Below are positions 25,446-60,376 of a stretch of 64,000 bases of DNA, one piece after another. Under the pieces are notes generated by a model that searched no databases, was not told the origin of the DNA, and was given only the letters and a program-made list of their open reading frames with translations. Both the position numbers and the translations under genes were made by a program. Numbering within the stretch: position 1 is the first letter of the stretch; each line of letters starts with the position of its first letter. The DNA is from Treponema sp. (GTDB taxonomy: Bacteria; Spirochaetota; Spirochaetia; Treponematales; Treponemataceae). Where the stretch lies: assembly GCA_052169915.1 (NCBI GenBank), contig JBQNBN010000003.1, positions 3,441-67,440 on the forward strand. The letters run 5' to 3'.

Positions 25446-25470
25446 ATATCCCTCTGTTTAATTTCAAATC

Positions 25471-27891
25471 CTACTCAAGTTCCGGCTCGCGTTCGTAGTC
25501 GATGATTTCTTCCGCGCCTGCCGACATGTTCGTCGTGTCTCCGCGCTTGAGCGAGCGCACAACGTCTTCGCGGAATTTCCGCCTCCGCGCTTCATTTGCC
25601 TGCGCCGCTCCCGACGGAGAGTTCCCCGTCTGTCGACTGGAATCTGAGCCGTCCGCACGTCCGTTCGCCGTTCCCGACGGCTTTTGCGCGCCGGAAGAAG
25701 ATCGGGCGTTGTCCGCCCCGCCGTTTGCCTGCCGTCCCGTCTGCGCATTCTTCGGCGCGGCATTTTTGTCTTGCGCGCCGCCGTTTTTGCCGCGCGCCGT
25801 ATCGTTTGCGTTCTTTGCGCCGGAGGAGTTTTGATCCGCGCCTGCCGCAGCATTTTGTGAAGCGCGGTTCTGCGCGCCGCCCGCCTTTGCGCCGTTATTT
25901 GCATTGGGGTTTGAAGATGCGGAATTGCCGCTTGCCGCTCCGTTTGTCCGCGAGTTTTCCGCGCTTTGAGGACGACTGCCTGCCGCGCTGTCCGCATTTT
26001 GAGTTTTTCCTGACGCGGCTTCTGCCGTTTTGTCCGTGCTTTGCCGTCCCGTCCTATTGTTTGAAGCGGCTTTATTTCCCTGCGCTCCGTTTCCTTCCGC
26101 GCTTGAGGAATTGCCGTTTTCGCCGCCGTCTTTCTGCGCGTTCTGTCCGCCGTTCTTTGCCGCCGCGTCAGAGTTTTTTCCGTCCGCAGGATTACGCCCG
26201 CTGCCTGCCGCCGCATTATCCTTCCGATTTGCGTCCGACGCTCCGGAGCCGTTTTGTCCGCTGCCGCCGCGTCCGTCATTTTCTTTCGAGGATTGCGCTC
26301 CTTGCGAATTTTTATTTTGCGCATCGCGGCTGCTTTCCGCTCCGCCGGACTTTTTCGCGTCGTCCGCCGCGTTATTGTTACGCTGTCCGTTTTTTTGCTC
26401 CGCTCCGTTTTGTCCGTTTCGCGCGGAAGACGACTGTCCGTTATCCTTTGTATTTGCCGCGGCGTTCGAGCCATCGTCTGCGGTTCCCGTATCGCGAGAG
26501 GCGTCCGCATTACGCCCATCCCCAACTGCCTGCGTATTTTGTCCGTCTCCCGCGCTGCGATTGGAAGAGGCGTTGCTTTCGGCGGATTGTTTTTTCGCTT
26601 GCGCATTCGCGTCTTGTCCGCCGTTTTGTGTTCCGTCTGCGGAACGGACTTTGCCGTCCGCCGTATCGCCCGCTTGAGGATCGCCGCTCGCATTTTGTGT
26701 ACGCCCGTTTGCGCCTTCGTTGCCGGCGGACGAGGAACGCCCCGCTTCGTCTGCGCTCCGTTCCGCTTGCGCATTTTGTGATGCGGACTCTCCGCCGCGC
26801 ATATCGCCGGCATTCATTGACTCGGCATTTTCCGTTTGACTGCGCGCCGTATCGTTTGCGTTCCTTGAACTGGAAGATTTTTGTTCCGATTCGGCAGCGC
26901 CCGCGCGTCCTGTCTGCGCGTATTCGTTTTGTGAGCCGCTGCTTTGTGCGTCCGCATTACGGCCGCCGCCCGCCGCAACTCCGTTGCCGTTTGCCGCGCC
27001 GTCGTTTTCTGTAATACCGTTCCGGTTATTCCCGTTGCCGGAATTTCCGCTTTGCGCGGTATTGGGGGCTCCGTTAAAGCCGCCCGCGCCGCCATTGTTT
27101 CCGGCAGTCCCGTTTCCGTCCGATTGGGTATTCTGCATTCCGCTGCGTTCTTCTCCGGAAGCGTTTGCAAGTCCGCCTGCGGAAGTTCCGCCCGCTCCTT
27201 GCCCGCCGTTCATGCCGACGCCGCTTCCGTCCGCTCCGTTTTGCATTCCGGCGGCATCGCGTACGACGGAGGCCGCTCCGTACCCCGCGGCAATTTTCAT
27301 CAGCGCTTCTTCTATGCGCCGGTTTTCTTCCGCCGTCTGACGCTGGGATTCGGCATAGCGCGCCTCATCTTCCGCTTTTTTGCGCAAGTCTTCAGTCAAA
27401 TAAGAAAGAAGACGCCGAATGTTATCCGCCTGCTCATCGTCGGGTTCAAGTTCAAGAAAACGGCGGTAGTCGGCTTCGGCATCCTTGTATTTTTGCGTCA
27501 TAATGCGCGTGTTCGCGCGGTTCAAAATCGCTTGGGAAAAGTCCGGACGCGCCGCAATCGCAAGCGAAAAACAATTTTCCGCTTTTATGTAGTCGCCCCG
27601 CGTGTAAGCGACGTTGCCTTCATTAAAAGCAATCTGCCTGCGATTTGAAATAGGATTTTTCATACCGCGCTCAAAAGCGTCCATCGCCCGAGCATAGTCG
27701 CCGAGTTGAAAGTACGAAAGTCCCAAAATATTGAAGGTATTGGATTCAACGCGCCCCTCGGCAATTTCTTTTTCAAGAACGGGAGCCGCCTGCTCGGGAT
27801 GATTTTCATTGAAAAGACGCTCGCCTTCGCTTTCGGCATACGCGCCGGACGCCGCTAAAACTGCGGCAAACAAAAAAAACAGTTTTTTCAT
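25471..27891 (-). CDS. Secreted TPR protein with ~560-aa low-complexity region
   Basis: 806 aa with a signal peptide (MKKLFFLFAAVLAASGAYA) and N-terminal TPRs. A very long G/N/A/S/Q/D-rich tract follows, and several overlapping frames stay open across it. Confidence 0.8.
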   Translation of the reverse strand: MKKLFFLFAAVLAASGAYAESEGERLFNENHPEQAAPVLEKEIAEGRVESNTFNILGLSYFQLGDYARAMDAFERGMKNPISNRRQIAFNEGNVAYTRGDYIKAENCFSLAIAARPDFSQAILNRANTRIMTQKYKDAEADYRRFLELEPDDEQADNIRRLLSYLTEDLRKKAEDEARYAESQRQTAEENRRIEEALMKIAAGYGAASVVRDAAGMQNGADGSGVGMNGGQGAGGTSAGGLANASGEERSGMQNTQSDGNGTAGNNGGAGGFNGAPNTAQSGNSGNGNNRNGITENDGAANGNGVAAGGGRNADAQSSGSQNEYAQTGRAGAAESEQKSSSSRNANDTARSQTENAESMNAGDMRGGESASQNAQAERSADEAGRSSSAGNEGANGRTQNASGDPQAGDTADGKVRSADGTQNGGQDANAQAKKQSAESNASSNRSAGDGQNTQAVGDGRNADASRDTGTADDGSNAAANTKDNGQSSSARNGQNGAEQKNGQRNNNAADDAKKSGGAESSRDAQNKNSQGAQSSKENDGRGGSGQNGSGASDANRKDNAAAGSGRNPADGKNSDAAAKNGGQNAQKDGGENGNSSSAEGNGAQGNKAASNNRTGRQSTDKTAEAASGKTQNADSAAGSRPQSAENSRTNGAASGNSASSNPNANNGAKAGGAQNRASQNAAAGADQNSSGAKNANDTARGKNGGAQDKNAAPKNAQTGRQANGGADNARSSSGAQKPSGTANGRADGSDSSRQTGNSPSGAAQANEARRRKFREDVVRSLKRGDTTNMSAGAEEIIDYEREPELE

Positions 27892-46633: not shown

Positions 46634-47593
46634 TTACGTCTTCCCGTCGGACATCTTCTGCAGTAAGTAATCCATTATCCCGTCATCATCGCAGGCGTTA
46701 AGAATCGTTTCCATCATATGCCCGTGAAGCATAGTCCAGTCGTTTTTGATGAACTCAAGGCTTCCGTCAGGTAAGCGGCGGTAGATAAGGCGGAAACTGT
46801 CTGCGTTTCCGTAAATGTCGACAAAAAGCGTGTCCCCGTATTCTTCCGTGCGCTCAACGCGCGTATGTCGCGCGCCGAAAGTCGGAGCCGGATATTCGAT
46901 TATCGTGCCGACAATATCTTTTACGCGGAGACTTTCCGCCTTTCCTGCCGCGCGGATTTTTGAAAACCGCTTGAGTTTTTCAATATGAAAGTCGGTGTTG
47001 TCGCGGTAATCTTCCATTATATAAAGAAGATACCAGTCGTCCCACGCATAAATGAGCCGTACCGGACGCAGCAGGACTTCAGTCTCGCCGTCTTTTACGC
47101 AGCGAACGCAAAGATTTTTGTTCATCGACTGCACAAACGTTTCCGCATCGGAAAAAGTTCCCCAGTTGGAAAGCGCAATCTGGATATTCTCCCGCACCGT
47201 GTGGAAGGTCATTTTTTGCATTTGTCCTGCACGCTCGACGATGGAGCGGAATATATCGTCAATCTGAGGCGCATAAAAAGTCCCGCCGAAAAGCGAATCC
47301 ATAAGGCGCCACGCAAGCGTCAAAACGGCAATGTCGCTCTCACTGTAGGCAAAATCCAAAAGCGCAAAGTCGGGATAGCAGTAAAAATAGCCGCGCTTTT
47401 CATGACTGTATTCGATGGGCGCGCCGAGATTCATTTCCATATACCGAAGGTCGCGCTGAATTGTGCGCTTACTCACCTCAAGTTTTTCCGCAATCTTTTT
47501 CGCCGACGGGCATTTTCCCGCTCGTATCATCTTATCGATTTCAAACATCCGCTTGTACGCCGTGCGGTATTTGTCTTTGAATAATTCATCCAT
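46634..47593 (-). CDS. WYL-domain transcriptional regulator (HTH + WYL)
   Basis: 319 aa with an N-terminal DeoR/HTH_11-type motif (AKKIAEKLEVSKRTIQRDLRYMEMNLGAPIEY) and a central WYL-like region (IYAWDDWYLLYI). Confidence 0.78.
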   Translation of the reverse strand: MDELFKDKYRTAYKRMFEIDKMIRAGKCPSAKKIAEKLEVSKRTIQRDLRYMEMNLGAPIEYSHEKRGYFYCYPDFALLDFAYSESDIAVLTLAWRLMDSLFGGTFYAPQIDDIFRSIVERAGQMQKMTFHTVRENIQIALSNWGTFSDAETFVQSMNKNLCVRCVKDGETEVLLRPVRLIYAWDDWYLLYIMEDYRDNTDFHIEKLKRFSKIRAAGKAESLRVKDIVGTIIEYPAPTFGARHTRVERTEEYGDTLFVDIYGNADSFRLIYRRLPDGSLEFIKNDWTMLHGHMMETILNACDDDGIMDYLLQKMSDGKT

Positions 47594-47852
47594 AATTTCC
47601 TCCGTATGTTTTTTCTTGTTAGATACTGCCTTTCTCCGCCCTTTTCGACTGCAAAAACTGCACTTTACCGTAAGTACTCAGTAATAAGGCGAATAGAAAC
47701 GCCGTCTTTGTCCGTTACGCAAAATTGCCGACTGTCTAGGCTCCATTCCCCGTAACCGGATTGCGTTGCCGCCGCAATGAAAACTCACCCCGGGCGGACG
47801 GCAACTTTGTATTGTCTCTCAAATTTCATTCTATTCCGCCCGCAACATTTCC

Positions 47853-47932
47853 TCAAGTTTTCGATTAGTAAACTTGCAGCAGGCTGAACTCAGTTTAAGT
47901 CTGTCAAATCTTTATAGCACCCACCTGCGCCG
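47853..47932 (+). repeat. Dispersed two-hairpin intergenic repeat (copy)
   Basis: CAAGTTTTCG-ATTA-GTAAACTTG...AAGTCTGTCAAATC...CACCTGCGCCG. It occupies the 5' extension of the ORF-track patatin ORF. Confidence 0.5.
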
Positions 47933-47966
47933 TCTCTTGTCGCCCCCGCTGCGCTATACTTTCCGC

Positions 47967-48782
47967 ATGGAAAAGAAACTCGGTTTAGTATTAGCAGGCG
48001 GAGGCGGAAAGGGAGCGTATCAAGCCGGCGTATGGAAATATTTACGGGAATCAGGCATTGCAGACCGCATTTCCGTATTGTCGGGAACGTCCGTCGGCGC
48101 GCTCAACGCCGCTCTTTTTACTCTTGTACCGTACAAAACGGTGGAACGCATTTGGACGTGCGCCGTCCATGACAAAATCCTTTCGTTGCAGGACAAATCT
48201 CTTCCTGCAATAGAAGACGGATTATCTTTTATTGCAGAGGGACTTTTTAGCGCCGCCTTATCGTCGTTCAAGACAGTTGCGGAAAACGGTATCTGGAGCA
48301 GAGACGGACTTTTGGAAATTATGCAGAGCATTCCGCTTAAAAATCTGCACAATCCCAAAATTCCTTCAGTTTATGCCGCCTGCACAGCCGTTTTTCCTCT
48401 GTTCGGAACCAAATATTTTAGACTAAACGGATACAATATCCCGAAAATCCGAAAAATTCTCCTTGCTTCAAGCGCAATCCCGCTTGCCTTTAAGCCGGAG
48501 ACGATTGACGGCACGCTCTACCTTGACGGCGGACTTACCTGCAACGTACCGCTTGCCCCGCTTATCAGAACACACTGCGCCTGCGCCATCGTAATCACCT
48601 TGTTGGAAAATGCCGAAATAACTCCCCCTCCGCCGCCTCAAATGCGCGTTGTTACAATCCGCCCGTCCGAGCCGCTTGGAAAACTCGGCGCTCTAAACTT
48701 TTCTTCCGCGCGGATACGCCGCTTAATCCGCCTCGGCTATGAAGACACGAAGCGAACGCTGCGTGAGGGGAATTGGTTTTAA
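47967..48782 (+). CDS. Patatin-like phospholipase
   Basis: Reads MEKKLGLVLAGGGGKGAYQAG (oxyanion GGGxxG), with GTSVG (GxSxG nucleophile) and YLDGGL (catalytic Asp). The start is placed at the internal Met after the repeat element. Confidence 0.85.
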   Translation: MEKKLGLVLAGGGGKGAYQAGVWKYLRESGIADRISVLSGTSVGALNAALFTLVPYKTVERIWTCAVHDKILSLQDKSLPAIEDGLSFIAEGLFSAALSSFKTVAENGIWSRDGLLEIMQSIPLKNLHNPKIPSVYAACTAVFPLFGTKYFRLNGYNIPKIRKILLASSAIPLAFKPETIDGTLYLDGGLTCNVPLAPLIRTHCACAIVITLLENAEITPPPPPQMRVVTIRPSEPLGKLGALNFSSARIRRLIRLGYEDTKRTLREGNWF

Positions 48783-48785
48783 TTG

Positions 48786-48821
48786 GGAATGCGGAGGACT
48801 TAATTATGAATTCCGCATTCC
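48786..48821. repeat. GGAATGCGGA/TCCGCATTCC hairpin between convergent genes
   Basis: A perfect 10-bp inverted repeat with a 16-nt loop. Related GGAATGCG...CGCATTCC + AATTAAGCAT modules occur at about 29215-29255, 55478-55525 and 58666-58712. Confidence 0.55.
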
Positions 48822-48831
48822 GAATTAAGCA

Positions 48832-49131
48832 TTAAAATTTACGCATTACCCTCACTCCCATCCGCGTTTCATTGAATATGAATACATATTCTCCGCTGTC
48901 CGGCACGGTGAAGAAAAAATTACTATTAGACTTCCTGCCTGATGTTGACTTGTAGTCTGCGCTGTCAAGCGGAATAACAGCACGCATGTAATCAAGCGCG
49001 CCCCACTGCTGCGACCAGTTTTCAACAGCAGCGCAAAACTTAAATTGCGCGGTTGTACCGACTGCAAGATATACCGTACACGACCAAACGGCTTCTCCTG
49101 AGGGCGCATCAAGCATCATCCCCATCGCGCC
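48832..49131 (-). other. CBM-like beta-sandwich module, in frame with the upstream ORF across a TGA
   Basis: ..GAMGMMLDAPSGEAVWSCTVYLAVGTTAQFKF...GEYVFIFNETRMGVRVMRKF is homologous to 54251-54652. The preceding codon (49132-49134) is TGA where the paralogue has TGG. Confidence 0.6.
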
Positions 49132-50388
49132 TCAATTATTCATGTTGCCGCGCAAGAACATCGCCGTAGAGACGGCTACGACTACGGCAATGTTTTGCTC
49201 TTCGGCGGCGTAATCTGCGTCCCCCATATCCGAATTAACTTGTCTTTCTCCTTCTACTCGTTCACTGTTTCGGGGGGGGGGGGGGGGGGTAATGATTGCA
49301 AAAGGGGTCCTGTCGCCAAAATTATGTTCCACTACTTTCAAATAAAATATCTTTCCTGAACATGGAGCAAAAATGTTATATGTTGATGAGGAACGAACAG
49401 TTGCTTTCCCTTCAAAGCCGGTTAGATGTGCAATACATTGCCCTTCTTCTACCAGAGCACCATGTTCACAGCCTCTCTGGAGTTCCCATCTGAGTCTATA
49501 ATAACCAGAACTCTCTTTACTAGCAGCATAAGCAGAACTGCCTATTTGATTGAGAATGTGAAGAAAGCCGTTATATGGATTAGTAAGACCATTTTTCTCA
49601 TACTCAGAAAAATAACCGCCGGATGCAGCAGCGTGTTTAGTTACGCAGACTACACTGTTCGTAAGCACTCTATCGATTTCACTTTCAAGCTTTCGCTCAT
49701 ATTCGGTTTGCAGTTCCAAGATTTTTGCGTCTTTCCGGCTCTCGGTCTCTGCCAGCTGCCGTTGATGTTCGGAGCGTTCTTCCGCCGCTTTTTTCTGCGC
49801 GTTCGTCAATTCCCGCTCGTATTCCGTTCTCATCTTTTCAATCTGTGCGTCTTTTTGCTTTAAGGCTTCTTCATCGCGTCCGAACACGCTTGTATCTGCG
49901 GAAAAAAGCGTAATAAAATCCGACGTCTCAAGAATGAGCGCATTTTCAGGCTCTGAATCGGAGCAGGCACAGTCGGCATGGGCGTTTTCATCAACGCAGA
50001 TTGTATATGCAGCATCCAAAACAGAGACAGCAAATTCGTCACCCTTTTTTATTGCGCGCTTGGCTGCCGCAATAAACGGCAGTACGTACTCCGCTTGGAT
50101 AAGGCTGCTGCACTTTGCTTTGAGAGTCAGCGCGTGCAGGCGTTTGGCGGCAGTTCCGTCCCGCCCGCAGTCAACAATGATGAGCGCAAAATCATCGTCG
50201 TCAAAATCATTGATACTGTAGAAGTCTTTTATAAACTCTACAAATGTATCCATATCTTCTGATGTTTCATAATACATACACGGATTTCCGTTTATGCTCA
50301 CGGGGTTTGCATTGCCGCTTGTATCGACGGCAAGCGCCCGCGCCTCTGAAGCGGTAACGACCGCAAGTATTCTATAGCGCGCTTGCAT
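49132..50388 (-). CDS. Island-II family protein A: conserved N-domain, coiled coil, large middle region, poly-Pro
   Basis: The start is at MQARYRILAVV with an AAGGAGG RBS. The N-terminal 150 aa are ~70-80% identical to the paralogues at 54613-55392 and 56655-58589. It ends ...FLRGNMNN at TGA. Confidence 0.7.
   Translation of the reverse strand: MQARYRILAVVTASEARALAVDTSGNANPVSINGNPCMYYETSEDMDTFVEFIKDFYSINDFDDDDFALIIVDCGRDGTAAKRLHALTLKAKCSSLIQAEYVLPFIAAAKRAIKKGDEFAVSVLDAAYTICVDENAHADCACSDSEPENALILETSDFITLFSADTSVFGRDEEALKQKDAQIEKMRTEYERELTNAQKKAAEERSEHQRQLAETESRKDAKILELQTEYERKLESEIDRVLTNSVVCVTKHAAASGGYFSEYEKNGLTNPYNGFLHILNQIGSSAYAASKESSGYYRLRWELQRGCEHGALVEEGQCIAHLTGFEGKATVRSSSTYNIFAPCSGKIFYLKVVEHNFGDRTPFAIITPPPPPRNSERVEGERQVNSDMGDADYAAEEQNIAVVVAVSTAMFLRGNMNN
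49272..49289. repeat. Homopolymeric G18 tract (C18 on coding strand)
   Basis: Counted directly: 18 consecutive G. On the minus strand it encodes T-P-P-P-P-P-R inside family protein A. Confidence 0.95.
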
Positions 50389-50518
50389 ATTATTTTCCTC
50401 CTTCATAAACCTGTTCGGAAACTTCTGGTTCGGAACAGGGTACTTTTAAATGCAATGTTCTCAATCGCGCTGTTTGTGCGATTGAGAACTCGTCAACCCG
50501 TTTGATAACGGAGTGCTT

Positions 50519-51142
50519 TTATTTACGCGATTTTAATGCGTTAGTCAGCGCATCGGAATCGCTGATATTCGGGTTTATTGCCTTTTCAATACCTTTTAAA
50601 GCGGTTTCCGCTTGGGCAAGTTTTTTGTCGTTGTGTTCGGTTCCATTCATGTATCCGAACACAGTTTTTGCCGTGTCGAGACTGCCGCTTATCAGCTTTC
50701 CGAATTCCGTCATACGCGCTTCCGTAAAATACTGCGGATTTGCAATTACATATTTTGCAAATGCCTCCATGGGGAAATCCGGGTATTTTTCTGCAGCAAG
50801 AGCCGAAGTAAGGGTAATTCCTTTTTGCAACTTCTCCTCTTCGGGAATGAGCTTTGATTTTTCAGGATCGACTTTAAATCCTTCCACTGCTTTTACATAT
50901 TTATCATACGAATCAAAATTTTCAGGTTTTATGCCCGCTTCCTCCGCTTGAATTGCTTTGTCTCCCAATTCTTCAGGCTTTGTTTCAGGCTTGATAATGC
51001 CTAATGCCTTTCCCAACGCGACAAAGGCGCTGCCGAGCGCTTTTAATCCCTGAATTGCAAGCCCTGCAATCGCAAGAGCTTTTCCGATTGTCGTTGCCGC
51101 TGCAATAATACTTCCAATGGCTCCAATAATAACTCCGAACAT
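50519..51142 (-). CDS. Hypothetical protein with N-terminal Gly/Ala-zipper segment
   Basis: 207 aa reading MFGVIIGAIGSIIAAATTIGKALAIAGLAIQGLKALGSAFVALGKALGII, then a helical Lys/Glu-rich region. It starts 18 nt after the ATPase stop. Confidence 0.6.
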   Translation of the reverse strand: MFGVIIGAIGSIIAAATTIGKALAIAGLAIQGLKALGSAFVALGKALGIIKPETKPEELGDKAIQAEEAGIKPENFDSYDKYVKAVEGFKVDPEKSKLIPEEEKLQKGITLTSALAAEKYPDFPMEAFAKYVIANPQYFTEARMTEFGKLISGSLDTAKTVFGYMNGTEHNDKKLAQAETALKGIEKAINPNISDSDALTNALKSRK

Positions 51143-51160
51143 AATCGTTCCTCCTAAATT

Positions 51161-54100
51161 TTACATCAGATACCGGCAAATATCTCCACCGATATCCTCT
51201 TTTGTTATATTTTTTGCATCGAACACGCCGATGTAAAAATCCGTAAGTTCCGCAATACGCTTTTGAGTGTCTTCCGGTTTATCATCGCTTTTCGCTTTGC
51301 CTTTCAACAGTTCCCGTCTGCGTATTAAAAGAGTCCATATCTTTTTACGTTCCAGTCCCGTTTTCTGAGAAACTTCTCCGATTGCTTTTTTAAGCTGTTC
51401 GCAGGTTGCACTATCCGGCTCCCTCTTCGAAATACTTTCCGCAACCTTATCGTACAATCTGTAAATAGAGAGAATTTCAAGATCGTCGTAACACTTCCCC
51501 AATTCAGGACGCTTTTCTAAAAACCGCGTGCGGACAACTTCATCGCCGATTTCGCGCTCGTTGGTGTCGGTGATACGCGTAATAAAGACGTGAACGGGTT
51601 TGTCCGTATGTTCGTTAAAGACGACGGCATTTCCCGTTTCAAGGGCTGAAAGATATTCCTTTTGTTTGTCGTCCATCAGCATGGTGTCTCCGACCGCTTC
51701 TTTGTCGTCTTTGGCAAGAATCTTGTGGATAATCTTTGTGTTGGTGTTTTTTAATACCTCAGGCGCAAGTTTATTCGGAATCTGGTCTACGACGATCAGC
51801 CCTTCGCCGTATTTACGAACTTCCGCAAGCAAGTCCGTAAAGGTTTCAACCGCGCCTTTTTTAGAACCGCTGTCGCCGAATTCCACTTTGGAAAGCAGGC
51901 GGTGCGCTTCTTCTATAAGCGTCAGATGTCTATAGTCGGGATTTTCCTTGTGTTTTGCTTTGATAACCGCAGAAAGGCGCGACAAAACAAAGCCCATCAG
52001 AAGCGATTTATCTTCCGGAGACTTCAGCTCTTCCATTTCAAGAATGACGTTATGCTCGGCAATATAGTTAAAGTCGGTGGAATGAGCGCAGTTGAGCATG
52101 GCGCCTTTTGATCCGACGGTCAGATTGGAAAGACGGCTGACAAGCGAACCTTTATAATTTGCCGCAAGTTCCGCTCCGAATCCTTTTTCGCCAACAACGG
52201 CGTCCAATTCCGTCAGCAATTCGGAAAGAATGGGAAAACTGTCCGTATCGGCGTCAAACGCCGCGTCTCCGTAGGAGTCGTTTTCATTCGTGTCGATATT
52301 CCAGCCCTTTTTTTCGTAGCAGCGGTAGATCGCTTCTTCCAAAATCTGCGGCATAGACGCTTCCATCGGGAAAGCGGACGTAAAAGTCGCCTTTACCATA
52401 TCGATATGCGATGAAATCACTTCGCCGGGGATCAGTTCAAACGGGTTTATTCTAAACGGAGAAGCAGTTTCGTTGCCGAGCGTAAAGACGACGATATCTT
52501 TAAACGCGCTTCCCGTGCCGGAGACGTCTCCGTTGATGAGCGTGCGGTATTCGGTTTTTGCAGGCTCAATAACAAGGAAGGGGATTTTTGCCTGTGAAAG
52601 CAGCTTGTGGCAGGTGGTTGTTTTTCCGCTGCCGGTAACGCCTGCGATAAAGGTGTGCTTTGCCATGCTTTTTCGCGAAAGCGTAAACGGCAGTTTTGTA
52701 AGCGGACGCCCGCGCTGTACCATGTAGCCGAGTTCTATCCCCGCCTCTTGCGTTCCGAACGGTTTTTCGTTCAGTCCGAAGTCTACAATTTCTTTAAGCG
52801 GAATGCCGGGAACCTCCGTCTGAGGCAGTCCCGCCAACAGGCTGATTTCAGACGCGGTCAGATAGGTGCAAAGCCCTTCACCGAGTTTTGAATCGGGACG
52901 GGATAAAAGCAGCCGCGCATCTTCGGAAACGGCAGGCTGCGTGTCGTATTGATTTTGGTATGTTTGCAAAATGCCGCAGGTTTCTTCTACGGATTTTTTT
53001 AATTTTTTTGCGATAAGCGGACTGTGAGTCGCCTTATTCCCTTGAAAGATTGACATAAGTCCGACTTTTAGCCGTTCCGCATGGCTTGGTTCCTTTGCCA
53101 TGTAATACACGGACGTCTTAAACGCTCCCTTACCGAGCCCTAAGCGAATGCGCTCTAAAAGCTCTTCTTCCATATATTTCATTAAATCCTGCGCGTGCTT
53201 GTTGGCAAGCTCAAGCGTTACCGCGTTGGACGAACCGCGGTTTTGCGTGCTTGTGCGGCTTTCGCTGTCCGATGTTGTTTCTCCTCTACTTTTTCCACCG
53301 CCTTTTGTATGCGCTTGGCTGCCTCCTTTGTTATGACCGTGGGTTGACCTGCCGGATTCAGTGGAATCATTCTCTCCCCATGTGGTTGTGCTTGTATCGC
53401 TCTCGTTGACGTTGTTCGTTATATTCTCCGATTCCGAATGCGTATTGCCGACTGCAACGGACGAGCCGTCATTTTCACTGTGCTGCAAGGTCAGTTTTGA
53501 GATAAGCGCAAGACGGTTGTAAAGTCCGTATACATTGCGCTGCAAGGAAAGCATTTCATCCCGTGAAACAGGCTCGCATACGACGACCAGTCTCCACTCA
53601 AGTCCGAGCATTGAATTTATAAGCCGGTCTATTCCCTGAAAGTCCTGTTCATCCCCGGCATCTTTTTCATTGACTGTCGGAATGCCGAGTAAAAGCCCCG
53701 CGTTTACTTCTCCTATATTGTTTGAATATAGTTGTGCGCCTTCCAAAAGAAAGTCGTTTGACTGCTTATCTTTTACTTGTTCCAGCGCACTGCCGTTAAA
53801 GTTCCCCTCAAAGGCATTTTTGAGAATCTTTCCGTAGTCGTTTGCGCTCATATATTCGCCGGTTTGACTGTTTCCGGGATTGACGTTTTTTACAATGCCT
53901 ATATATAAGTCAATTCCCCGCTCCGTGCCGGAAAGAACGTATGCAAAATTGAACGCCGGATTATCCAGCGAGGCAAGCACGTTTTCAAACGCTTCTCTGT
54001 GCGGATAATCTTTGTCGAATGCAAGCTGCGTTACCTTAAAAAAGCACGCCGAATTCCTGTCAAGTACGGTTTTCTTGTCCGGCGGAAAACCGATATCCGC

Positions 54101-54199
54101 AAAGGTTTCAATAACCTCGTTTTCTTCCGAATTTTGCAGATCATTAAACAGACTCAAGACTTGAGCCGTCTGCGCCGTCAATTGTGTGGAATCTTCCAT
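51161..54199 (-). CDS. HerA/FtsK-superfamily (DUF87-like) P-loop ATPase with ~480-aa N-terminal extension
   Basis: 1012 aa with Walker A GVTGSGKTTT and Walker B LTLIEEAHRLL. The downstream RKYGEGLIVVDQIPNKLAPEVLKNTNTKIIHKI is typical of HerA-like ATPases. The N-terminal region contains a Ser/Thr/Gly/Asn-rich tract. An AGGAG RBS is present. Confidence 0.85.
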   Translation of the reverse strand: MEDSTQLTAQTAQVLSLFNDLQNSEENEVIETFADIGFPPDKKTVLDRNSACFFKVTQLAFDKDYPHREAFENVLASLDNPAFNFAYVLSGTERGIDLYIGIVKNVNPGNSQTGEYMSANDYGKILKNAFEGNFNGSALEQVKDKQSNDFLLEGAQLYSNNIGEVNAGLLLGIPTVNEKDAGDEQDFQGIDRLINSMLGLEWRLVVVCEPVSRDEMLSLQRNVYGLYNRLALISKLTLQHSENDGSSVAVGNTHSESENITNNVNESDTSTTTWGENDSTESGRSTHGHNKGGSQAHTKGGGKSRGETTSDSESRTSTQNRGSSNAVTLELANKHAQDLMKYMEEELLERIRLGLGKGAFKTSVYYMAKEPSHAERLKVGLMSIFQGNKATHSPLIAKKLKKSVEETCGILQTYQNQYDTQPAVSEDARLLLSRPDSKLGEGLCTYLTASEISLLAGLPQTEVPGIPLKEIVDFGLNEKPFGTQEAGIELGYMVQRGRPLTKLPFTLSRKSMAKHTFIAGVTGSGKTTTCHKLLSQAKIPFLVIEPAKTEYRTLINGDVSGTGSAFKDIVVFTLGNETASPFRINPFELIPGEVISSHIDMVKATFTSAFPMEASMPQILEEAIYRCYEKKGWNIDTNENDSYGDAAFDADTDSFPILSELLTELDAVVGEKGFGAELAANYKGSLVSRLSNLTVGSKGAMLNCAHSTDFNYIAEHNVILEMEELKSPEDKSLLMGFVLSRLSAVIKAKHKENPDYRHLTLIEEAHRLLSKVEFGDSGSKKGAVETFTDLLAEVRKYGEGLIVVDQIPNKLAPEVLKNTNTKIIHKILAKDDKEAVGDTMLMDDKQKEYLSALETGNAVVFNEHTDKPVHVFITRITDTNEREIGDEVVRTRFLEKRPELGKCYDDLEILSIYRLYDKVAESISKREPDSATCEQLKKAIGEVSQKTGLERKKIWTLLIRRRELLKGKAKSDDKPEDTQKRIAELTDFYIGVFDAKNITKEDIGGDICRYLM

Positions 54200-54250: not shown

Positions 54251-54652
54251 TTATCTTTTGCGTTTGACTTGTACCGTCATCCGCGTCTCATTGAATATGA
54301 ATGCGTACTCACCGTTTTGCAGGGGCGATATCGTAACCGTAAAGGAAAATTGTTTTTGTCTGCCGTCTATGTATTTTGCATTTTTCGTAATACCGTTTGG
54401 TACTACAGCAGCATTATTAATATTAGCCGGTATACAATATTGCTCCTCTTCAACATTTTCATTTGCGAATACAAAATTTACCGTTCCAACAAAGAGGTTT
54501 ACCCTACACGACCAAACGGCTTCTCCTGAAGACATATCAAGCGTCATCGCCGTTGCGTCCCAGTTATTCATGCTGCCGCGTAAAAACATCGCAGGAGAGA
54601 CGGCAACGGCTCTTACGTTTTGTACCGCAGTCGTTCCATCTGCAGCACCCAT
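54251..54652 (-). other. CBM-like beta-sandwich module ORF, out of frame with upstream family protein B
   Basis: ..AVAVSPAMFLRGSMNNWDATAMTLDMSSGEAVWSCRVNLFVGTVNFVF...GEYAFIFNETRMTVQVKRKR. The open frame extends upstream to the poly-C tract, and one extra C would fuse it to protein B. Confidence 0.65.
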
Positions 54653-55392
54653 GCCCGAATTAACTTGTCCCTCTCTTCTTGATTCGGAGCCGTAGGGCTT
54701 AGTCTCCCTCGTACTTGTACTGGTACCGGAATGTCGGGGGGGGGGGGGGGCAGAGGCTGTTTTTTACGTTCATATTCTGCAAGCCTTCGTTCATAGTTTT
54801 CCTTTTCCCGCTCGTATTCGGCTTTCAGCTCGGCAATTTCAGCGTCCTTTTGCTTTAAGGCTTCTTCATTGCGCCCGAAAACGCTTGCATCTGCGGAAAA
54901 CAGCGCGGTAAAGTCCGCCGCGCCAAGGGTAAGCGCGTTTTCCGACGGCGTTTCATCCGTACCGCAGTGCGCGCAGTCAATACGTCCTTCATCATCGACA
55001 CGGAGCGTATACGCCGCATCCTCAACGGTAACGGCAAACTCATCGCCCTTTTTTATCGCGCGTTTCCTTGCCGCAATAAACGGCAGCACATACTCCGCTT
55101 CAATGAGGCTGCTGCACTTTGCCTTGAGCGTCAGAGCGTGCAGACGTTTGGCGGCAGTTCCGTCCTGCCCGCAGTCAACAACGATAAGCGCAAAATCGTC
55201 GTCATCAAAATCGTTTATGCTGTAATCGTCTTTTATGTACTGCAAAAAACTTTCCATATCGCCGGCGCTCTCATAATACATACACGGATTGCCGTTTATA
55301 CTCACCGGCGTTGTAACGCCTCTTGAGTCCAGCGACAACGCTAATACCTTTTTCTCCGTAACAACCGCCAATATCCTATAGCGCGCTTTCAT
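54613..55392 (-). CDS. Island-II family protein B (N-domain + coiled coil), frame-shifted at poly-C tract
   Basis: 259 aa. After PPPPP the frame reads DIPVPVQVRGRLSPT..., which resembles neither paralogue. The N-terminal 130 aa are nearly identical to protein C. Confidence 0.7.
   Translation of the reverse strand: MKARYRILAVVTEKKVLALSLDSRGVTTPVSINGNPCMYYESAGDMESFLQYIKDDYSINDFDDDDFALIVVDCGQDGTAAKRLHALTLKAKCSSLIEAEYVLPFIAARKRAIKKGDEFAVTVEDAAYTLRVDDEGRIDCAHCGTDETPSENALTLGAADFTALFSADASVFGRNEEALKQKDAEIAELKAEYEREKENYERRLAEYERKKQPLPPPPPDIPVPVQVRGRLSPTAPNQEERDKLIRAWVLQMERLRYKT
54736..54750. repeat. Homopolymeric G15 tract (C15 on coding strand)
   Basis: Counted directly: 15 consecutive G, at the junction between the coiled coil and the C-terminal module of protein B. 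Confidence 0.95.
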
Positions 55393-55633
55393 TCATTTTT
55401 CCTCCGTAGCACAGAAAATTTATTTTCACCTCTCCGAGTGCAGCCATTGTAATTCGTAGTGCGTAATTCTTAATTTGGGAATGCGTGTTTTTAATTTCGC
55501 ATTACGCATCCTTAAATTAAGCATTGCCCTATCTCCGACGGCAAAAAACAGTTTCCTCAAGTTTTGCGTAAGCAAAACCTGAGAGGGCGGCGCACAGTTC
55601 CCATCTTTCAAACTCCATAACAGCCGCCCGCCC
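54889..55633. repeat. ~745-bp direct repeat, copy 1 (5' third of family gene + upstream element)
   Basis: 54889-55437 aligns with 58086-58635. About 450 bp are identical apart from one T indel. After a ~40-bp divergent patch, similarity resumes to 55633 / 58820. Confidence 0.85.
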
Positions 55634-55638
55634 CCTCT

Positions 55639-56553
55639 TCATAGCCCTTCTACCTCCTCTTTTGAAAGACCGGTTGCGCTTGCAATCGATTCGGAAGACA
55701 ATCCCATTGCAAGCAATTTTTTTGCCGTTTCAACTTTCGCTTGGTAAGAGCCTTGTTCCATGCCTTGCGCTATCCCGCGTTCAATTCCTCGTTCAACCCC
55801 GTATTCCATGCCTTGCGCAAAGGCGATTTTGCCGGCTTCTTCGCACCGGACTGCGATGTCCGTGTCGTAATCGTATTCTGCAAGTAACATATTCAGTACC
55901 TCCCGTGATTTTCTTTGCAGATATTCTTTCAAAATATCATTTTTTATGCACTCTTTGATCGCTTCTTCAAAGCTGTGCGCTTTATCGGCTGCCGTATGCC
56001 GGCGGACAGATTCCACAAAGAGGCTGTATTCCTCAAGCGGTTTGCAGTCCCGAAGGATTTTGTTGTTTTTATCCGTGTTGATATTCAAAATCCGTACGGC
56101 AAGCTCTAACGAGGGCGCGGATGATTCTGTCATATAGGCGTCGGAGAGTTTTAAGGTTTTTTGCTCAGGATAATTTTCCCGCCCGTTGTAGAATACGTAG
56201 AATTCCGGCGTTGGGATTTTTTGCAATATCCGAAAATATTTTGCGCGCGGCTCTTGAATCTGCTCGTACAGACGGGCGACGTATTGCAGACAGCGAAGCG
56301 GCATATTTTCATTGACGGTCGACTGGTGCTCGGCTAAGACGATGATTTTATTGTCGATAAGGCACGATACGTCGTTCGATAATTTTGTGTAGACGGCTTG
56401 CTCCAATTTGAGCGTTTTGAGCTCCGTCGTGCGCTCGAGGTGCGTACCGTGCAGGGCGTTGTACAACGACAAAAAGTTATCTTTTGCGTTTTTATCCTCG
56501 CTGAATAGGTCAACAAAAACCGAATCTTTATAACGGCGGTTATGCTTTGCCAT
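55639..56553 (-). CDS. Rpn-family recombination-promoting nuclease / putative transposase (PD-(D/E)xK, YhgA-like)
   Basis: 304 aa with N-terminal YKDSVFVDLF...LEHQS-type core (IIVLAEHQSTVNENMP). The C-terminal repeat reads ERGIERGIAQGMEQG...LSKEEVEGL. Confidence 0.8.
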   Translation of the reverse strand: MAKHNRRYKDSVFVDLFSEDKNAKDNFLSLYNALHGTHLERTTELKTLKLEQAVYTKLSNDVSCLIDNKIIVLAEHQSTVNENMPLRCLQYVARLYEQIQEPRAKYFRILQKIPTPEFYVFYNGRENYPEQKTLKLSDAYMTESSAPSLELAVRILNINTDKNNKILRDCKPLEEYSLFVESVRRHTAADKAHSFEEAIKECIKNDILKEYLQRKSREVLNMLLAEYDYDTDIAVRCEEAGKIAFAQGMEYGVERGIERGIAQGMEQGSYQAKVETAKKLLAMGLSSESIASATGLSKEEVEGL

Positions 56554-56654
56554 AAAATCCTCCTCGATTTGTATTTTATTGCAGCTTCCCTATTTCATAA
56601 AGACTTAAACTCCAATTCAACCGGTTCGGAATTGGAGTTTTCGAACCGGTTTAT

Positions 56655-58589
56655 TTATTCCCGTCCGCCGCAGCTTTTACAAATCCTGAAGCCGGTATAC
56701 CCGTCAATCTCAAAAATTGAAAGGTGAACAGATAAGGAGTATATGTCAGAGGGATTGCAAGCCGAGCCTCCGAATTCGTAGAACGTATTGGCGTTATCTA
56801 CGGCAGTTGTTTCCCATATATTACCGCTCATATCGTATAGGCCGATTGTGTTCGGTTGTTTTTGCGCGACCGGATGCAGTTTGCCGCCGGTATTATCTGC
56901 GTACCATGCGACAGCATCTAAATCATCGCTGCCTGCATATTGAAAACTCTGCTGGTCTTTACCACCGTTGGCAGCATATATCCATTTTGCTGAAGTCGGT
57001 ATGTAATAGCCCTGTTTATTTGAGGAAACAAGTTCATAACACTGTACATAATAGTAACGACCCGGCAGGAGAGATAAAGATTCTGCCGGAATATAGGAAA
57101 TACCATCTTTTTGAGTTTTCTTTTCACAGAAATACTGCATATCTTCATCGGATATATGGATTCTTGATAAGTAGACTTCGTACGAGACTTTGGTGTTAAA
57201 TTTGCTGAACATAATATTATACTTCAATTCATTTTCAGGAGTTCTTCCTACTACATCAAGGTACTCAGCCGCCGTCACAGGTCCTGATTTGTGGTGTTTT
57301 TCTGTTAATTTTATTATTTCATCCAGTCCGTCTTTTTTGCTTTTTTGATTACAAAAAAAGACTTGGTCTTTTATGGAAACGTGCGTTACCGGAACGTCTC
57401 TTCCGTAAAAATCAAGCGCCTGCTCAATAAAGTCTTCCCATGCAAGAAATTTATATTTTGAACGCAGTATTGCGTCCACGTCTGCAAGCGCAGTTTTAGG
57501 CAGCAGCAAGGTTCCGCCTTTTTGCAGTTGTACGAAATGTTCTTTATCGATTTCAGGCGTTTCCAAATAAAAATGCGTTTTGAGGTTGGAAAACGTCTCG
57601 TTCAAATCATCGTGAGACATAGCGCACGCATCTGCTTGAGCGTATGGGTCAAGCGTTTTGAGCAAACCCGCTTGCACGGCGTACATTCCCAAGATCGCAT
57701 CCGGCACCTTTTCCGTTACGTCAAAATATTCCTGCATCGTTACCGGAGTCGCTGCCATATAAAAACTTTCAACCTTTATTCCGTTAAACTCTTCCGAATC
57801 CGGCATATCAATCATGCCGCCTTCAACAAATACCATATCGCTTGGGAGTGTCGTTTGCGCCGCAGGTGCGGGAGTTACTATTGGACTTGTATTGGGATGC
57901 GGCTGCGGGAGCAAAGCGTGATTGCCGTGCGGCTGCGCTGATTCTGCTGTCAATTTTTGAATGAGCTCTTTTTTGTCTTCGCCAAAGTATTCTATAAGCC
58001 CTTGTTCAATATTTTTAAGCTTCCGCTCATACTCCGTCTGCAATTCCAATTCCGCAATCTCCGCATCGCGCCCGAACGCGTTTATATCTGCGGAAAACAG
58101 CGCGGTAAAGTCCGCCGCGTCAAGGGGGAGCGCGTTTTCCGCCGGCGTTTCATCCGTACCGCAGCGCGCGCAGTCAATGCGCCCCTCATCATCAGCGTGG
58201 AGCGTATACGCCGCATCCTCAACGGTAACGGCAAACTCATCGCCCTTTTTTATCGCGCGTTTCCTTGCCGCAATAAACGGCAGCACATACTCCGCTTCAA
58301 TGAGGCTGCTGCACTTTGCCTTGAGCGTCAGAGCGTGCAGACGTTTGGCGGCAGTTCCGTCCTGCCCGCAGTCAACAACGATAAGCGCAAAATCGTCGTC
58401 ATCAAAATCGTTTATGCTGTAATCGTCTTTTATGTACTGCAAAAAACTTTCCATATCGCCGGCGCTCTCATAATACATACACGGATTGCCGTTTATACTC
58501 ACCGGCGTTGTAACGCCTCTTGAGTCCAGCGACAACGCTAATACCTTTTTCTCCGTAACAACCGCCAATATCCTATAGCGCGCTTTCAT
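56655..58589 (-). CDS. Island-II family protein C: conserved N-domain + coiled coil + FGE-sulfatase (SUMF1/CLec-fold) domain with inserts
   Basis: 644 aa. FGE motifs are MVFVEGGMIDMP, YYIPTSAKWIYAANGG and GLYDMSGNIWE...GFRI. The N-terminal 130 aa are identical or near-identical to protein B. Confidence 0.8.
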   Translation of the reverse strand: MKARYRILAVVTEKKVLALSLDSRGVTTPVSINGNPCMYYESAGDMESFLQYIKDDYSINDFDDDDFALIVVDCGQDGTAAKRLHALTLKAKCSSLIEAEYVLPFIAARKRAIKKGDEFAVTVEDAAYTLHADDEGRIDCARCGTDETPAENALPLDAADFTALFSADINAFGRDAEIAELELQTEYERKLKNIEQGLIEYFGEDKKELIQKLTAESAQPHGNHALLPQPHPNTSPIVTPAPAAQTTLPSDMVFVEGGMIDMPDSEEFNGIKVESFYMAATPVTMQEYFDVTEKVPDAILGMYAVQAGLLKTLDPYAQADACAMSHDDLNETFSNLKTHFYLETPEIDKEHFVQLQKGGTLLLPKTALADVDAILRSKYKFLAWEDFIEQALDFYGRDVPVTHVSIKDQVFFCNQKSKKDGLDEIIKLTEKHHKSGPVTAAEYLDVVGRTPENELKYNIMFSKFNTKVSYEVYLSRIHISDEDMQYFCEKKTQKDGISYIPAESLSLLPGRYYYVQCYELVSSNKQGYYIPTSAKWIYAANGGKDQQSFQYAGSDDLDAVAWYADNTGGKLHPVAQKQPNTIGLYDMSGNIWETTAVDNANTFYEFGGSACNPSDIYSLSVHLSIFEIDGYTGFRICKSCGGRE

Positions 58590-58820
58590 TCATTTTTCCT
58601 CCGTAGCACAGAAAATTTTATTTTCACCTCTCCGATATCCCCGCTCCGAGCACAGCAATTATAATGCAGAATGCGTATTTTCAATTCCGCATTACGCATC
58701 CCTCATTAAGCATTGCCCTATCTCCGTCTGCAAACACCAGTCTCCTCAAGTTTTGCGTAAGCAAAACTTGGCAGGGCGGCGCACAGTTCCATCTTTCAAA
58801 CTCCGTAACAGCCGCCCGCC
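58086..58820. repeat. ~745-bp direct repeat, copy 2
   Basis: See copy 1. It includes the hairpin CAAGTTTTGC-GTAA-GCAAAACTTG (58748-58771) and GGGCGGCGC...GCCGCCCGCC. Confidence 0.85.
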
Positions 58821-59704: not shown

Positions 59705-60376
59705 CTATCCTTCCTGCCCACACCGCAGACTTCGCCTCATAAAACCTAAACATATACCACCGTTCTCCGGCGTAATGGAAAACCGATTCTTGTATTCGTC
59801 TTCGGAAGATACAGCCGTAAACGCTGTGCCGTCAGCCCCATTAACCGGAGGGGTACCGTCCGCCCCCCGATATTGCACCTCCCTGCCGTTCTCAATTCTG
59901 CCGCGAAACATAAACTTTGTGGTTCCGGCAGAAACGTCTTCCATACGCTGCCAAACAGCGTCTCCCGAAGACGTATCAAGAAGCATCCCCTGTGGAATGC
60001 GCTGCGTCCACTCCCGCTCTCAATCAAATATCGAATTAAGGTCAGCCATTTCATTGTCGCGGCAAAAAAAGCCCATTATCTGGAGCGGATCGTCGGTAAA
60101 TTCCTCGTGTTCGTCAGGAGGAAAAAAACGCAGTGCCGTCGTGTTGATTGCATTTGACGCCATACAAAGAACCCACCCAAACAGAATAAATCCCGCGCCA
60201 GCCGCCTCCGCCAGCGCGCTCTTAAAACCCGCTTTCTTGTCTTTTCCGCTTTCACGCTCCTCGCTCCCTGCCGACTGGACAAGCGCGTGCCCCGCGCCGA
60301 GTACTGCAAGTCCTGCATTCCCAATCGCATCTCCAACCGCGTTCATAATGACTTTCCGCTTTATTCTTTTTCCCAT
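59705..60376 (-). pseudogene. Gly-zipper protein ORF (60023-60376) continued in frame, across TGA 60020-60022, by a divergent CBM-like module (59705-60019)
   Basis: MGKRIKRKVIMNAVGDAIGNAGLAVLGAGHAL...NSIFD-TGA-EREWTQRIPQGMLLDTSSGDAVWQRMEDVSAGTTKFMFRG.... The module is homologous to those at 48832-49131 and 54251-54652. Confidence 0.5.

Follow-up and report, generated by a model that had tools for sequence, protein, structure and literature searches.

Gene B of an uncultured Treponema carries fifteen consecutive cytosines in a proline linker, and beyond them a C-terminal module lies out of frame with the gene. Does this run act as a phase-variation switch for the module, or does it mark a gene that is being lost or was read wrongly? 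The original prediction, made on the stretch of DNA analysed here (64 kb in full, hereafter the window), favoured a switch between a short form and a long form that bears the module. The parts of gene B on which the question turns are as follows.

54613..55392, minus strand: ORF B as assembled (259 aa, NCBI ACTTKL_01000), made up of the N-domain, a coiled coil, the PPPPP stretch and an out-of-frame tail of 40 codons
54883..55392, minus strand: family N-domain of B (aa 1-170), predicted to be ASKHA-like from a structure model and weak Foldseek matches
54763..54867, minus strand: long helix or coiled coil (aa 176-210) predicted from the model
54736..54750, minus strand: pure C15 homopolymer, five CCC proline codons, in the linker of paralogue B that connects coiled coil and C-terminal module
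54613..54735, minus strand: short-form tail (DIPVPVQVRGRLSPT...RYKT, then stop), with no homologue and low model confidence
54251..54736, minus strand: linker plus module in the C16/C13 frame (RHSGTSTSTRETKPYGSESRREGQVNSGMGAADG...VKRKR, then stop), 161 sense codons and a stop, no internal stop
54251..54652, minus strand: separate 133-aa gene call of the module frame (P0018, NCBI ACTTKL_00995)
54254..54610, minus strand: CBM48/AMPK1_CBM/X25-like predicted beta-sandwich module (AVAVSPAMFLRGSMNNW...GEYAFIFNETRMTVQVKRKR)

Re-reading the window sequence gave exactly 15 C on the coding (minus) strand at 54736-54750, a pure run that appears as G15 on the plus strand and lies in the context CTG-C15-GAC. 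At this length the assembled ORF passes through PPPPP and ends ...KKQPLPPPPPDIPVPVQVRGRLSPT...RYKT with a stop at 54613, after 259 aa, in agreement with the ORF calls. The tail had been described as unlike that of any paralogue, and we found no homologue for it. The prediction that C16 or C13 would instead lead into the module frame, and on to 54251, was reproduced by in-silico editing of the tract, and its frame arithmetic is correct (55392-54652 = 740, which is 2 mod 3). The translations likewise confirmed the parallel drawn with paralogue A (PPPPP-RNSERVEGERQVNSDMGDADY...FLRGNMNN). The module frame at 54251..54652 is reached by +1 or -2 nt at the tract. No convincing Shine-Dalgarno sequence precedes the ATG of ACTTKL_00995, the separate call of that frame.

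An in-silico length series yielded three classes of product. Tracts of C13, C16 and C19 gave a fusion of 379-381 aa (PPPPP-RHSGTSTSTRETKPYG...FLRGSMNNWD...VKRKR, then stop), with 379 aa for C13 and 380 aa for C16, both ending at 54251. Tracts of C12, C15 and C18 gave 258-260 aa, and those of C11, C14, C17 and C20 gave 229-232 aa. The run is thus an uninterrupted homopolymer within the coding sequence of ORF B, longer than the roughly 8 nt from which contingency loci are recognised, at which a change of +/-1 in silico swaps defined products of 380, 259 and 230 aa. The predicted junction peptides are ...KQPLPPPPPR / QPLPPPPPR for the long form and ...KQPLPPPPPDIPVPVQVR / QPLPPPPPDIPVPVQVR for the short form; an interrupted version of the tract would read CCACCGCCT...

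A tract of this length is far beyond chance. Across the 64-kb window, G/C runs of lengths 1-6 numbered 19116, 4333, 664, 158, 31 and 4, none had a length of 7-14, and beyond that gap there were just two, of 15 and 18. The fitted decay predicts 1.7e-6 runs of at least 15. The count of fifteen is nevertheless the consensus of a single metagenome-assembled genome and could be off by one. G/C runs of at least 15 are miscounted on all current sequencing platforms, and they stutter in library PCR. The true modal length might accordingly be 16 (or 13), which would make B a normal 380-aa gene: the source is a metagenome-assembled genome, a correction of a single base suffices and the frame downstream is clean. 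Yet the rest of the window is free of systematic homopolymer frameshifts, with long, tightly packed ORFs and A/T runs of up to 9, and the C18 tract of paralogue A is in frame. We regard such a miscall as distinctly unlikely, and the instability of the tract would remain even if it had occurred. The source species turned up only once across the protein, genome, metagenome and viral collections searched. A search for tract-length variants of B, with exact flanks and a variable gap, found none in JGI metagenomes or viral contigs.

A long form that carries the module had been put forward, and a protein from another Treponema (P0003) shows that such an architecture is real. Its coiled coil runs directly into the module without any homopolymer (...KQKDAEIAKLK...LQLAIATASPAMFLRGGMNDWGATEM...GEYIFIFNETEMTVQVKSKR), and its module is 39% identical to that of B. 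The possibility of a poly-G sequencing artefact joining unrelated DNA was rejected, as every assembler k-mer exceeds the run in length and P0003 confirms that the two flanks are parts of a single gene architecture. The P0003 gene itself (L004:9750-10000, also in L003) carries an insertion of ~110 nt after ...GNPHMY in the N-domain, which may be a small mobile element. The database protein is an N-terminally truncated call because of this insertion.

Upstream of the tract, an N-domain of ~170 aa followed by a coiled coil is common to three paralogues, A, B and C; the N-domain of B shares 68% amino-acid identity with that of A and 85% with that of C. Its AlphaFold2 model, built on a 13-sequence alignment, reached a pLDDT of about 85 and shows a beta-beta-beta-alpha-beta-alpha-beta-alpha order plus a partial second lobe. 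The Foldseek hits to this model all had the actin/sugar-kinase (ASKHA) fold, though at a weak level (E about 1e-4, TM about 0.3), and the N-domain is predicted to be ASKHA (actin/sugar-kinase/Hsp70)-like. A profile search with the N-domain collected about 60 distant members of 330-450 aa. No model in Pfam, NCBIfam or PADLOC names either this family or the conserved 207-aa protein encoded nearby.

The C-terminal module was originally called CBM-like, a label that profile comparison upholds and direct domain search does not. The module profile matches tandem repeats in amylases and pullulanases (E 1e-20 to 1e-8), and these enzymes carry AMPK1_CBM, CBM_48 and X25 domains. Direct Pfam matches were all below the gathering threshold, at 15.7 bits for AMPK1_CBM (cut-off 26.8) and 15.7 for CBM_48 (22.4), and the same held for CBM_20 in A (15.6; cut-off 23.3) and X25 in P0003 (20.2; cut-off 27). 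The AlphaFold2 model of the module is all-beta, but its mean pLDDT is only 50.4. Because the Pfam scores are sub-threshold and the model is poor, we consider the CBM-like assignment reasonable, not proven. The FLRGxMNxW start motif, the all-beta though low-confidence prediction and the profile matches to tandem repeats link it to CBM48, AMPK1_CBM and X25 modules. Unlike those, the module here is not carried by a glycoside hydrolase; its protein is of the ASKHA-like/coiled-coil kind, looks cytoplasmic and is encoded next to a HerA-like ATPase. The B module also departs from them in lacking the conserved Trp motif: NVEEEQYC stands in place of the NW..QWG that is kept in A and P0003. A word-based search with the module alone recovered only itself.

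No stop codon interrupts the module frame of B over 165 codons. Nei-Gojobori dN/dS for the module is 0.23 between B and A, 0.32 between B and P0003 and 0.21 between A and P0003; these are rough values because synonymous sites are near saturation. Together, the low ratios and the open frame suggest that the module was constrained for most of its history, and that any disruption is recent or reversible. A decayed pseudogene would be expected to combine multiple lesions with neutral evolution, whereas the B module has a single lesion, the frame offset, and dN/dS below 0.35.

The other paralogues in the window show what has become of the same junction elsewhere.

49132..50406, minus strand: paralogue A (424 aa), ending at a TGA (49132-49134) where B has TGG (Trp)
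49272..49289, minus strand: pure C18 tract of A in the equivalent linker, in frame with the linker and the module start
48838..49131, minus strand: rest of the A module after the TGA, in the same frame and otherwise intact, with W..QWG kept
56655..58589, minus strand: paralogue C (644 aa), N-domain plus FGE-sulfatase domain, with no module after it

The TGA of A lies about 46 codons past C18, and a separate 94-aa protein entry (P0019) covers the part of the module behind it. Reading of TGA as Trp was rejected, since TGA ends 17 of 43 long ORFs. Directly upstream of the tract, A and B are unrelated, with a lipoyl-like domain in A and the coiled coil in B. Their homology starts exactly at or after the tract (R[HN]S...EG.RQVNS.MG.AD...AVS.AMFLRG), with 76% DNA identity. 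Considering that a C18 in A and a C15 in B are both pure despite this divergence of their flanks, two pure runs have persisted at one junction.

Two further observations concern the paralogues. B and C share 92% DNA identity over 735 nt (54866-55600 against 58064-58789), including about 200 nt before the start codon, and pS for their N-domains is 0.05, which points to promoter and N-domain having been duplicated or converted recently. The window holds one more copy of the CBM-like module, the fourth and a divergent one, in frame at 59705-59986 (MLLDTSSGDAVW...GTTKFMF...), behind a TGA (60020-60022) that ends an upstream ORF of ~120 aa. It is the second case, after A, of an in-frame TGA just before or inside a module.

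Such lesions are what recent pseudogenisation would leave behind. On that account the module is being lost, the inactivating indel happened to fall in the homopolymer, the out-of-frame state has become fixed and decay is to follow. Every module copy that we saw is severed or degraded: A by its TGA, the fourth copy behind another, and those in three related Treponema loci (L001, L015 and L012) as remnants. The B module has lost W..QWG, and no in-frame 380-aa B was found among 5.8 billion protein clusters. No fully intact gene combining N-domain and module was found in any collection searched. This empty record follows from the cut or degraded state of all module copies, and it also fits an ongoing loss of the module. 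The stop-free stretch of 165 codons and the dN/dS of 0.23-0.32 speak against decay, a 15-nt pure run is mechanically so unstable that a truly fixed length is unlikely, and the retention of pure tracts in two paralogues despite 24% flank divergence would be unexpected under neutrality. We hold pseudogenisation to be unlikely, though the most serious of the alternatives.

Related loci carry a second homopolymer site within this linker. About 176 kb of DNA from related Treponema loci contained no G/C run of at least 7 other than G14, G10 and G11, all at one linker position, to which we aligned the corresponding stretch of B by eye.

L001:8125-8138: poly-G tract, G14
L012:6150-6159: poly-G tract, G10
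L015:2575-2585 and L016:2575-2585: poly-G tract, G11, in two samples
54640..54655, minus strand of the window: position in B homologous to the poly-G site of the relatives by alignment by eye, short here (ATGGGTGCT)

These tracts lie at the 3' end of FGE-sulfatase paralogues on gut or oral Treponema contigs. The site follows ...GFRICKS[CS] at the end of the FGE-sulfatase domain and is directly 5' of module remnants. Its flanks are identical except for one substitution in L015 and L016, and the L001 and L012 genes share 95.3% identity over 2460 nt. G10 reads on into the module remnant, while G11 and G14 stop at once (GGGGN, then stop). Only the first ~20 module codons are left in L001 and L015, and L012 has an internal deletion in the module. 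Aligned by eye, the G site corresponds to ATGGGGGAC in A, about 45 nt past the C tract, and to ATGGGTGCT in B, about 80 nt past it. We rejected the idea that the G tract is the C tract of the window on the opposite strand, as the alignment places them apart. The three length alleles constitute direct sequence evidence of instability in the linker of this family, at a neighbouring site rather than at C15.

In paralogue C, the G site has decayed by substitutions to GCGGCGGACGGG (56660-56671), which has the look of a tract that is no longer renewed where no module follows. The stop codon comes next, then a strong hairpin (56619-56651), and a nuclease gene of the Rpn/YhgA type takes the place of the module. 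Searches for more alleles added little. No length variants of the G site were found in viral contigs, and a scan of metagenomes for the family returned only two short loci, both without tracts. The genome scan gave one useful locus, L001, next to an irrelevant Bacteroidales locus (L002), and searching for homologues of the C-terminal end of L012 gene 1 brought up no close relatives and no additional tract alleles.

Both isoforms could also arise during expression from a tract of constant length, either because RNA polymerase slips or because ribosomes shift by -1 on C_CCC_CCC, helped by stalling on poly-proline. When a run is longer than the RNA:DNA hybrid, the transcript can realign without mismatch cost, and C15 would allow this. 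The module frame corresponds to a -1 shift, after which tRNA-Pro would re-pair perfectly. The slippery run is present, but no stimulatory RNA structure was detected 3' of it (z = -0.34), and the out-of-frame arrangement is not conserved, given that A is in frame and P0003 is tract-free. Furthermore, the bacterial transcriptional slippage documented in PMC6260861 concerns A/T runs. Recoding is the least probable of the readings that we weighed.

The surroundings of gene B bear on what a change of frame would do. Two genes directly downstream of B come into play.

51161..54199, minus strand: HerA/mad8-like ATPase (1012 aa)
50519..51142, minus strand: conserved 207-aa partner gene, found in the same gene order in L012

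The HerA-like gene starts 52 nt past the long-form stop and 414 nt past the short-form stop, and B is probably in the same operon. The conserved order in the relatives is HTH_3, a Zn-ribbon gene, one or more family genes, the HerA/mad8-like ATPase, the 207-aa gene and a family gene, ending with a convergent patatin-like lipase and a WYL/HTH_11 regulator. In the window, the stretch 46634-54199 runs from the HerA/mad8-like ATPase through the 207-aa gene and one member of the family to the convergent patatin-like phospholipase and the WYL/HTH_11 regulator. This neighbourhood resembles a defence or conflict (anti-phage) island; PADLOC has no system that matches it as a whole. A gene for an Rpn-family recombination-promoting nuclease / putative transposase (55639-56553; TIGR01784 'T_den_put_tspse', PF04754) is inserted between C and B; the syntenic loci L012 and L006 do not have it. 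Elsewhere in the window, at 25464-27891, two long minus-strand ORFs (449 aa and 806 aa) overlap in different frames.

A more far-reaching reading takes the runs as microhomology joints that move a linker-module cassette among upstream domains, with the frame of B gating the operon of HerA-like ATPase, 207-aa gene and A by polarity. It derives from the positions of the homology boundaries: the A/B homology begins exactly at the C tract, and that between FGE-sulfatase genes and module-bearing genes begins or ends exactly at the G site. If this reading were true, a candidate HerA/patatin/WYL defence island would contain a sensor set that is phase-variable and shuffles cassettes; we think it very unlikely. 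A role for the tract as a promoter spacer was also considered and rejected, there being no promoter-like site nearby.

The explanation that we prefer, at about an even chance, is that C15 is a slipped-strand phase-variation switch in the inter-domain linker that toggles the C-terminal module. The tract would be a hypermutable simple-sequence repeat in which slipped-strand mispairing during replication frequently changes the length by +/-1. The predicted protein layout is an ASKHA-like N-domain, a coiled coil, a proline linker and a CBM48/X25-like beta-sandwich. Its gene would pass among three frame states: long, 380 aa (C13/16/19); short, 259 aa (C12/15/18, the assembled state); and a dead end of about 230 aa (C11/14/17). 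Tract length would vary within the population, both isoforms would be made, and selection would keep the tract as a switch. Translation of the short form would end 414 nt short of the HerA-like gene, compared with 52 nt for the long form, and may in this way also lower downstream operon expression through polarity.

Several points weigh for the switch. A single added C restores a 380-aa ORF, and the G site is interrupted in C, where no module follows. On the same side stand the exactness and improbable length of the tract, the direct join in P0003, the pure C18 of A, the length alleles of the G site, the low dN/dS and open frame of the module, and the NgoAV and T. pallidum precedents described below. 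Against it weigh the A module, which its TGA renders dead at any tract length, and the B module, which is without W..QWG and has a slightly higher dN/dS. The module remnants in L001, L015 and L012 and the P0003 gene broken by its insertion count on the same side. The explanations are not exclusive, as a 15-nt pure run will slip whatever its modal length.

If the tract does switch, it would represent an intragenic, domain-level phase-variable gene in an uncultured, non-pallidum Treponema. This gene adjoins a HerA-like ATPase, a patatin-like lipase and a WYL regulator, kinds that are common in anti-phage systems. Natural plus and minus variants in the population would offer a handle on the role of the CBM-like module, and the locus would add to the evidence for G/C homopolymer contingency loci in treponemes beyond the tpr promoters. 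If the tract is miscalled or the gene is dying, the matter is one of annotation only, and ACTTKL_01000 and ACTTKL_00995 are one frameshifted gene.

Homopolymer phase variation, including the kind that fuses and unfuses reading frames, is already well known. In Campylobacter jejuni and Helicobacter pylori, slipped-strand mispairing at intragenic poly-G/C loci turns translation ON or OFF, and the tracts are concentrated in a small number of variable gene families. They typically measure 8-13 in Campylobacter and reach about 16 in H. pylori. The majority sit close to the 5' end, where a shift costs the entire protein instead of a single C-terminal module.

The original prediction had pointed to the poly-G tracts of T. 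pallidum tpr genes. That analogy stands for the mutational process and fails for the read-out, as the tracts of tprE/G/J, tprL and tp0126 are in promoters and change transcription (PMC7864442). At tprL, 7-11 G were measured, and the length varies within T. pallidum isolates (PMC7864442). Genus and G/C homopolymers are shared with the present locus. Here, however, the tract is inside an ORF and alters its reading frame, and the genes concerned show no relation to those of T. pallidum and no outer-membrane signature.

The closest documented analogue that we can name is the NgoAV type I R-M system of Neisseria gonorrhoeae, in which a poly-G tract at the end of hsdS1 keeps this ORF apart from hsdS2; when one G is lost, they become fused (PMC9577141). 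Both cases place a homopolymer at the 3' end of a first ORF, where one base fuses the downstream ORF, a second domain is gained and short and long products alternate. Many strains carry extra inactivating mutations in NgoAV (PMC9577141), and further inactivating mutations likewise occur in the present family. The two differ in tract length, G6-G9 in NgoAV against 15-18 here, and in what is switched, target-recognition domains against a CBM-like module in unrelated proteins. For NgoAV, switching and phenotype were shown experimentally, whereas in the present case switching is predicted from the sequence. What the locus in the window adds is an uncultured non-pallidum Treponema as host, an uncharacterised ASKHA-like family with swappable C-termini, and homopolymer runs that lie exactly at the module boundaries.
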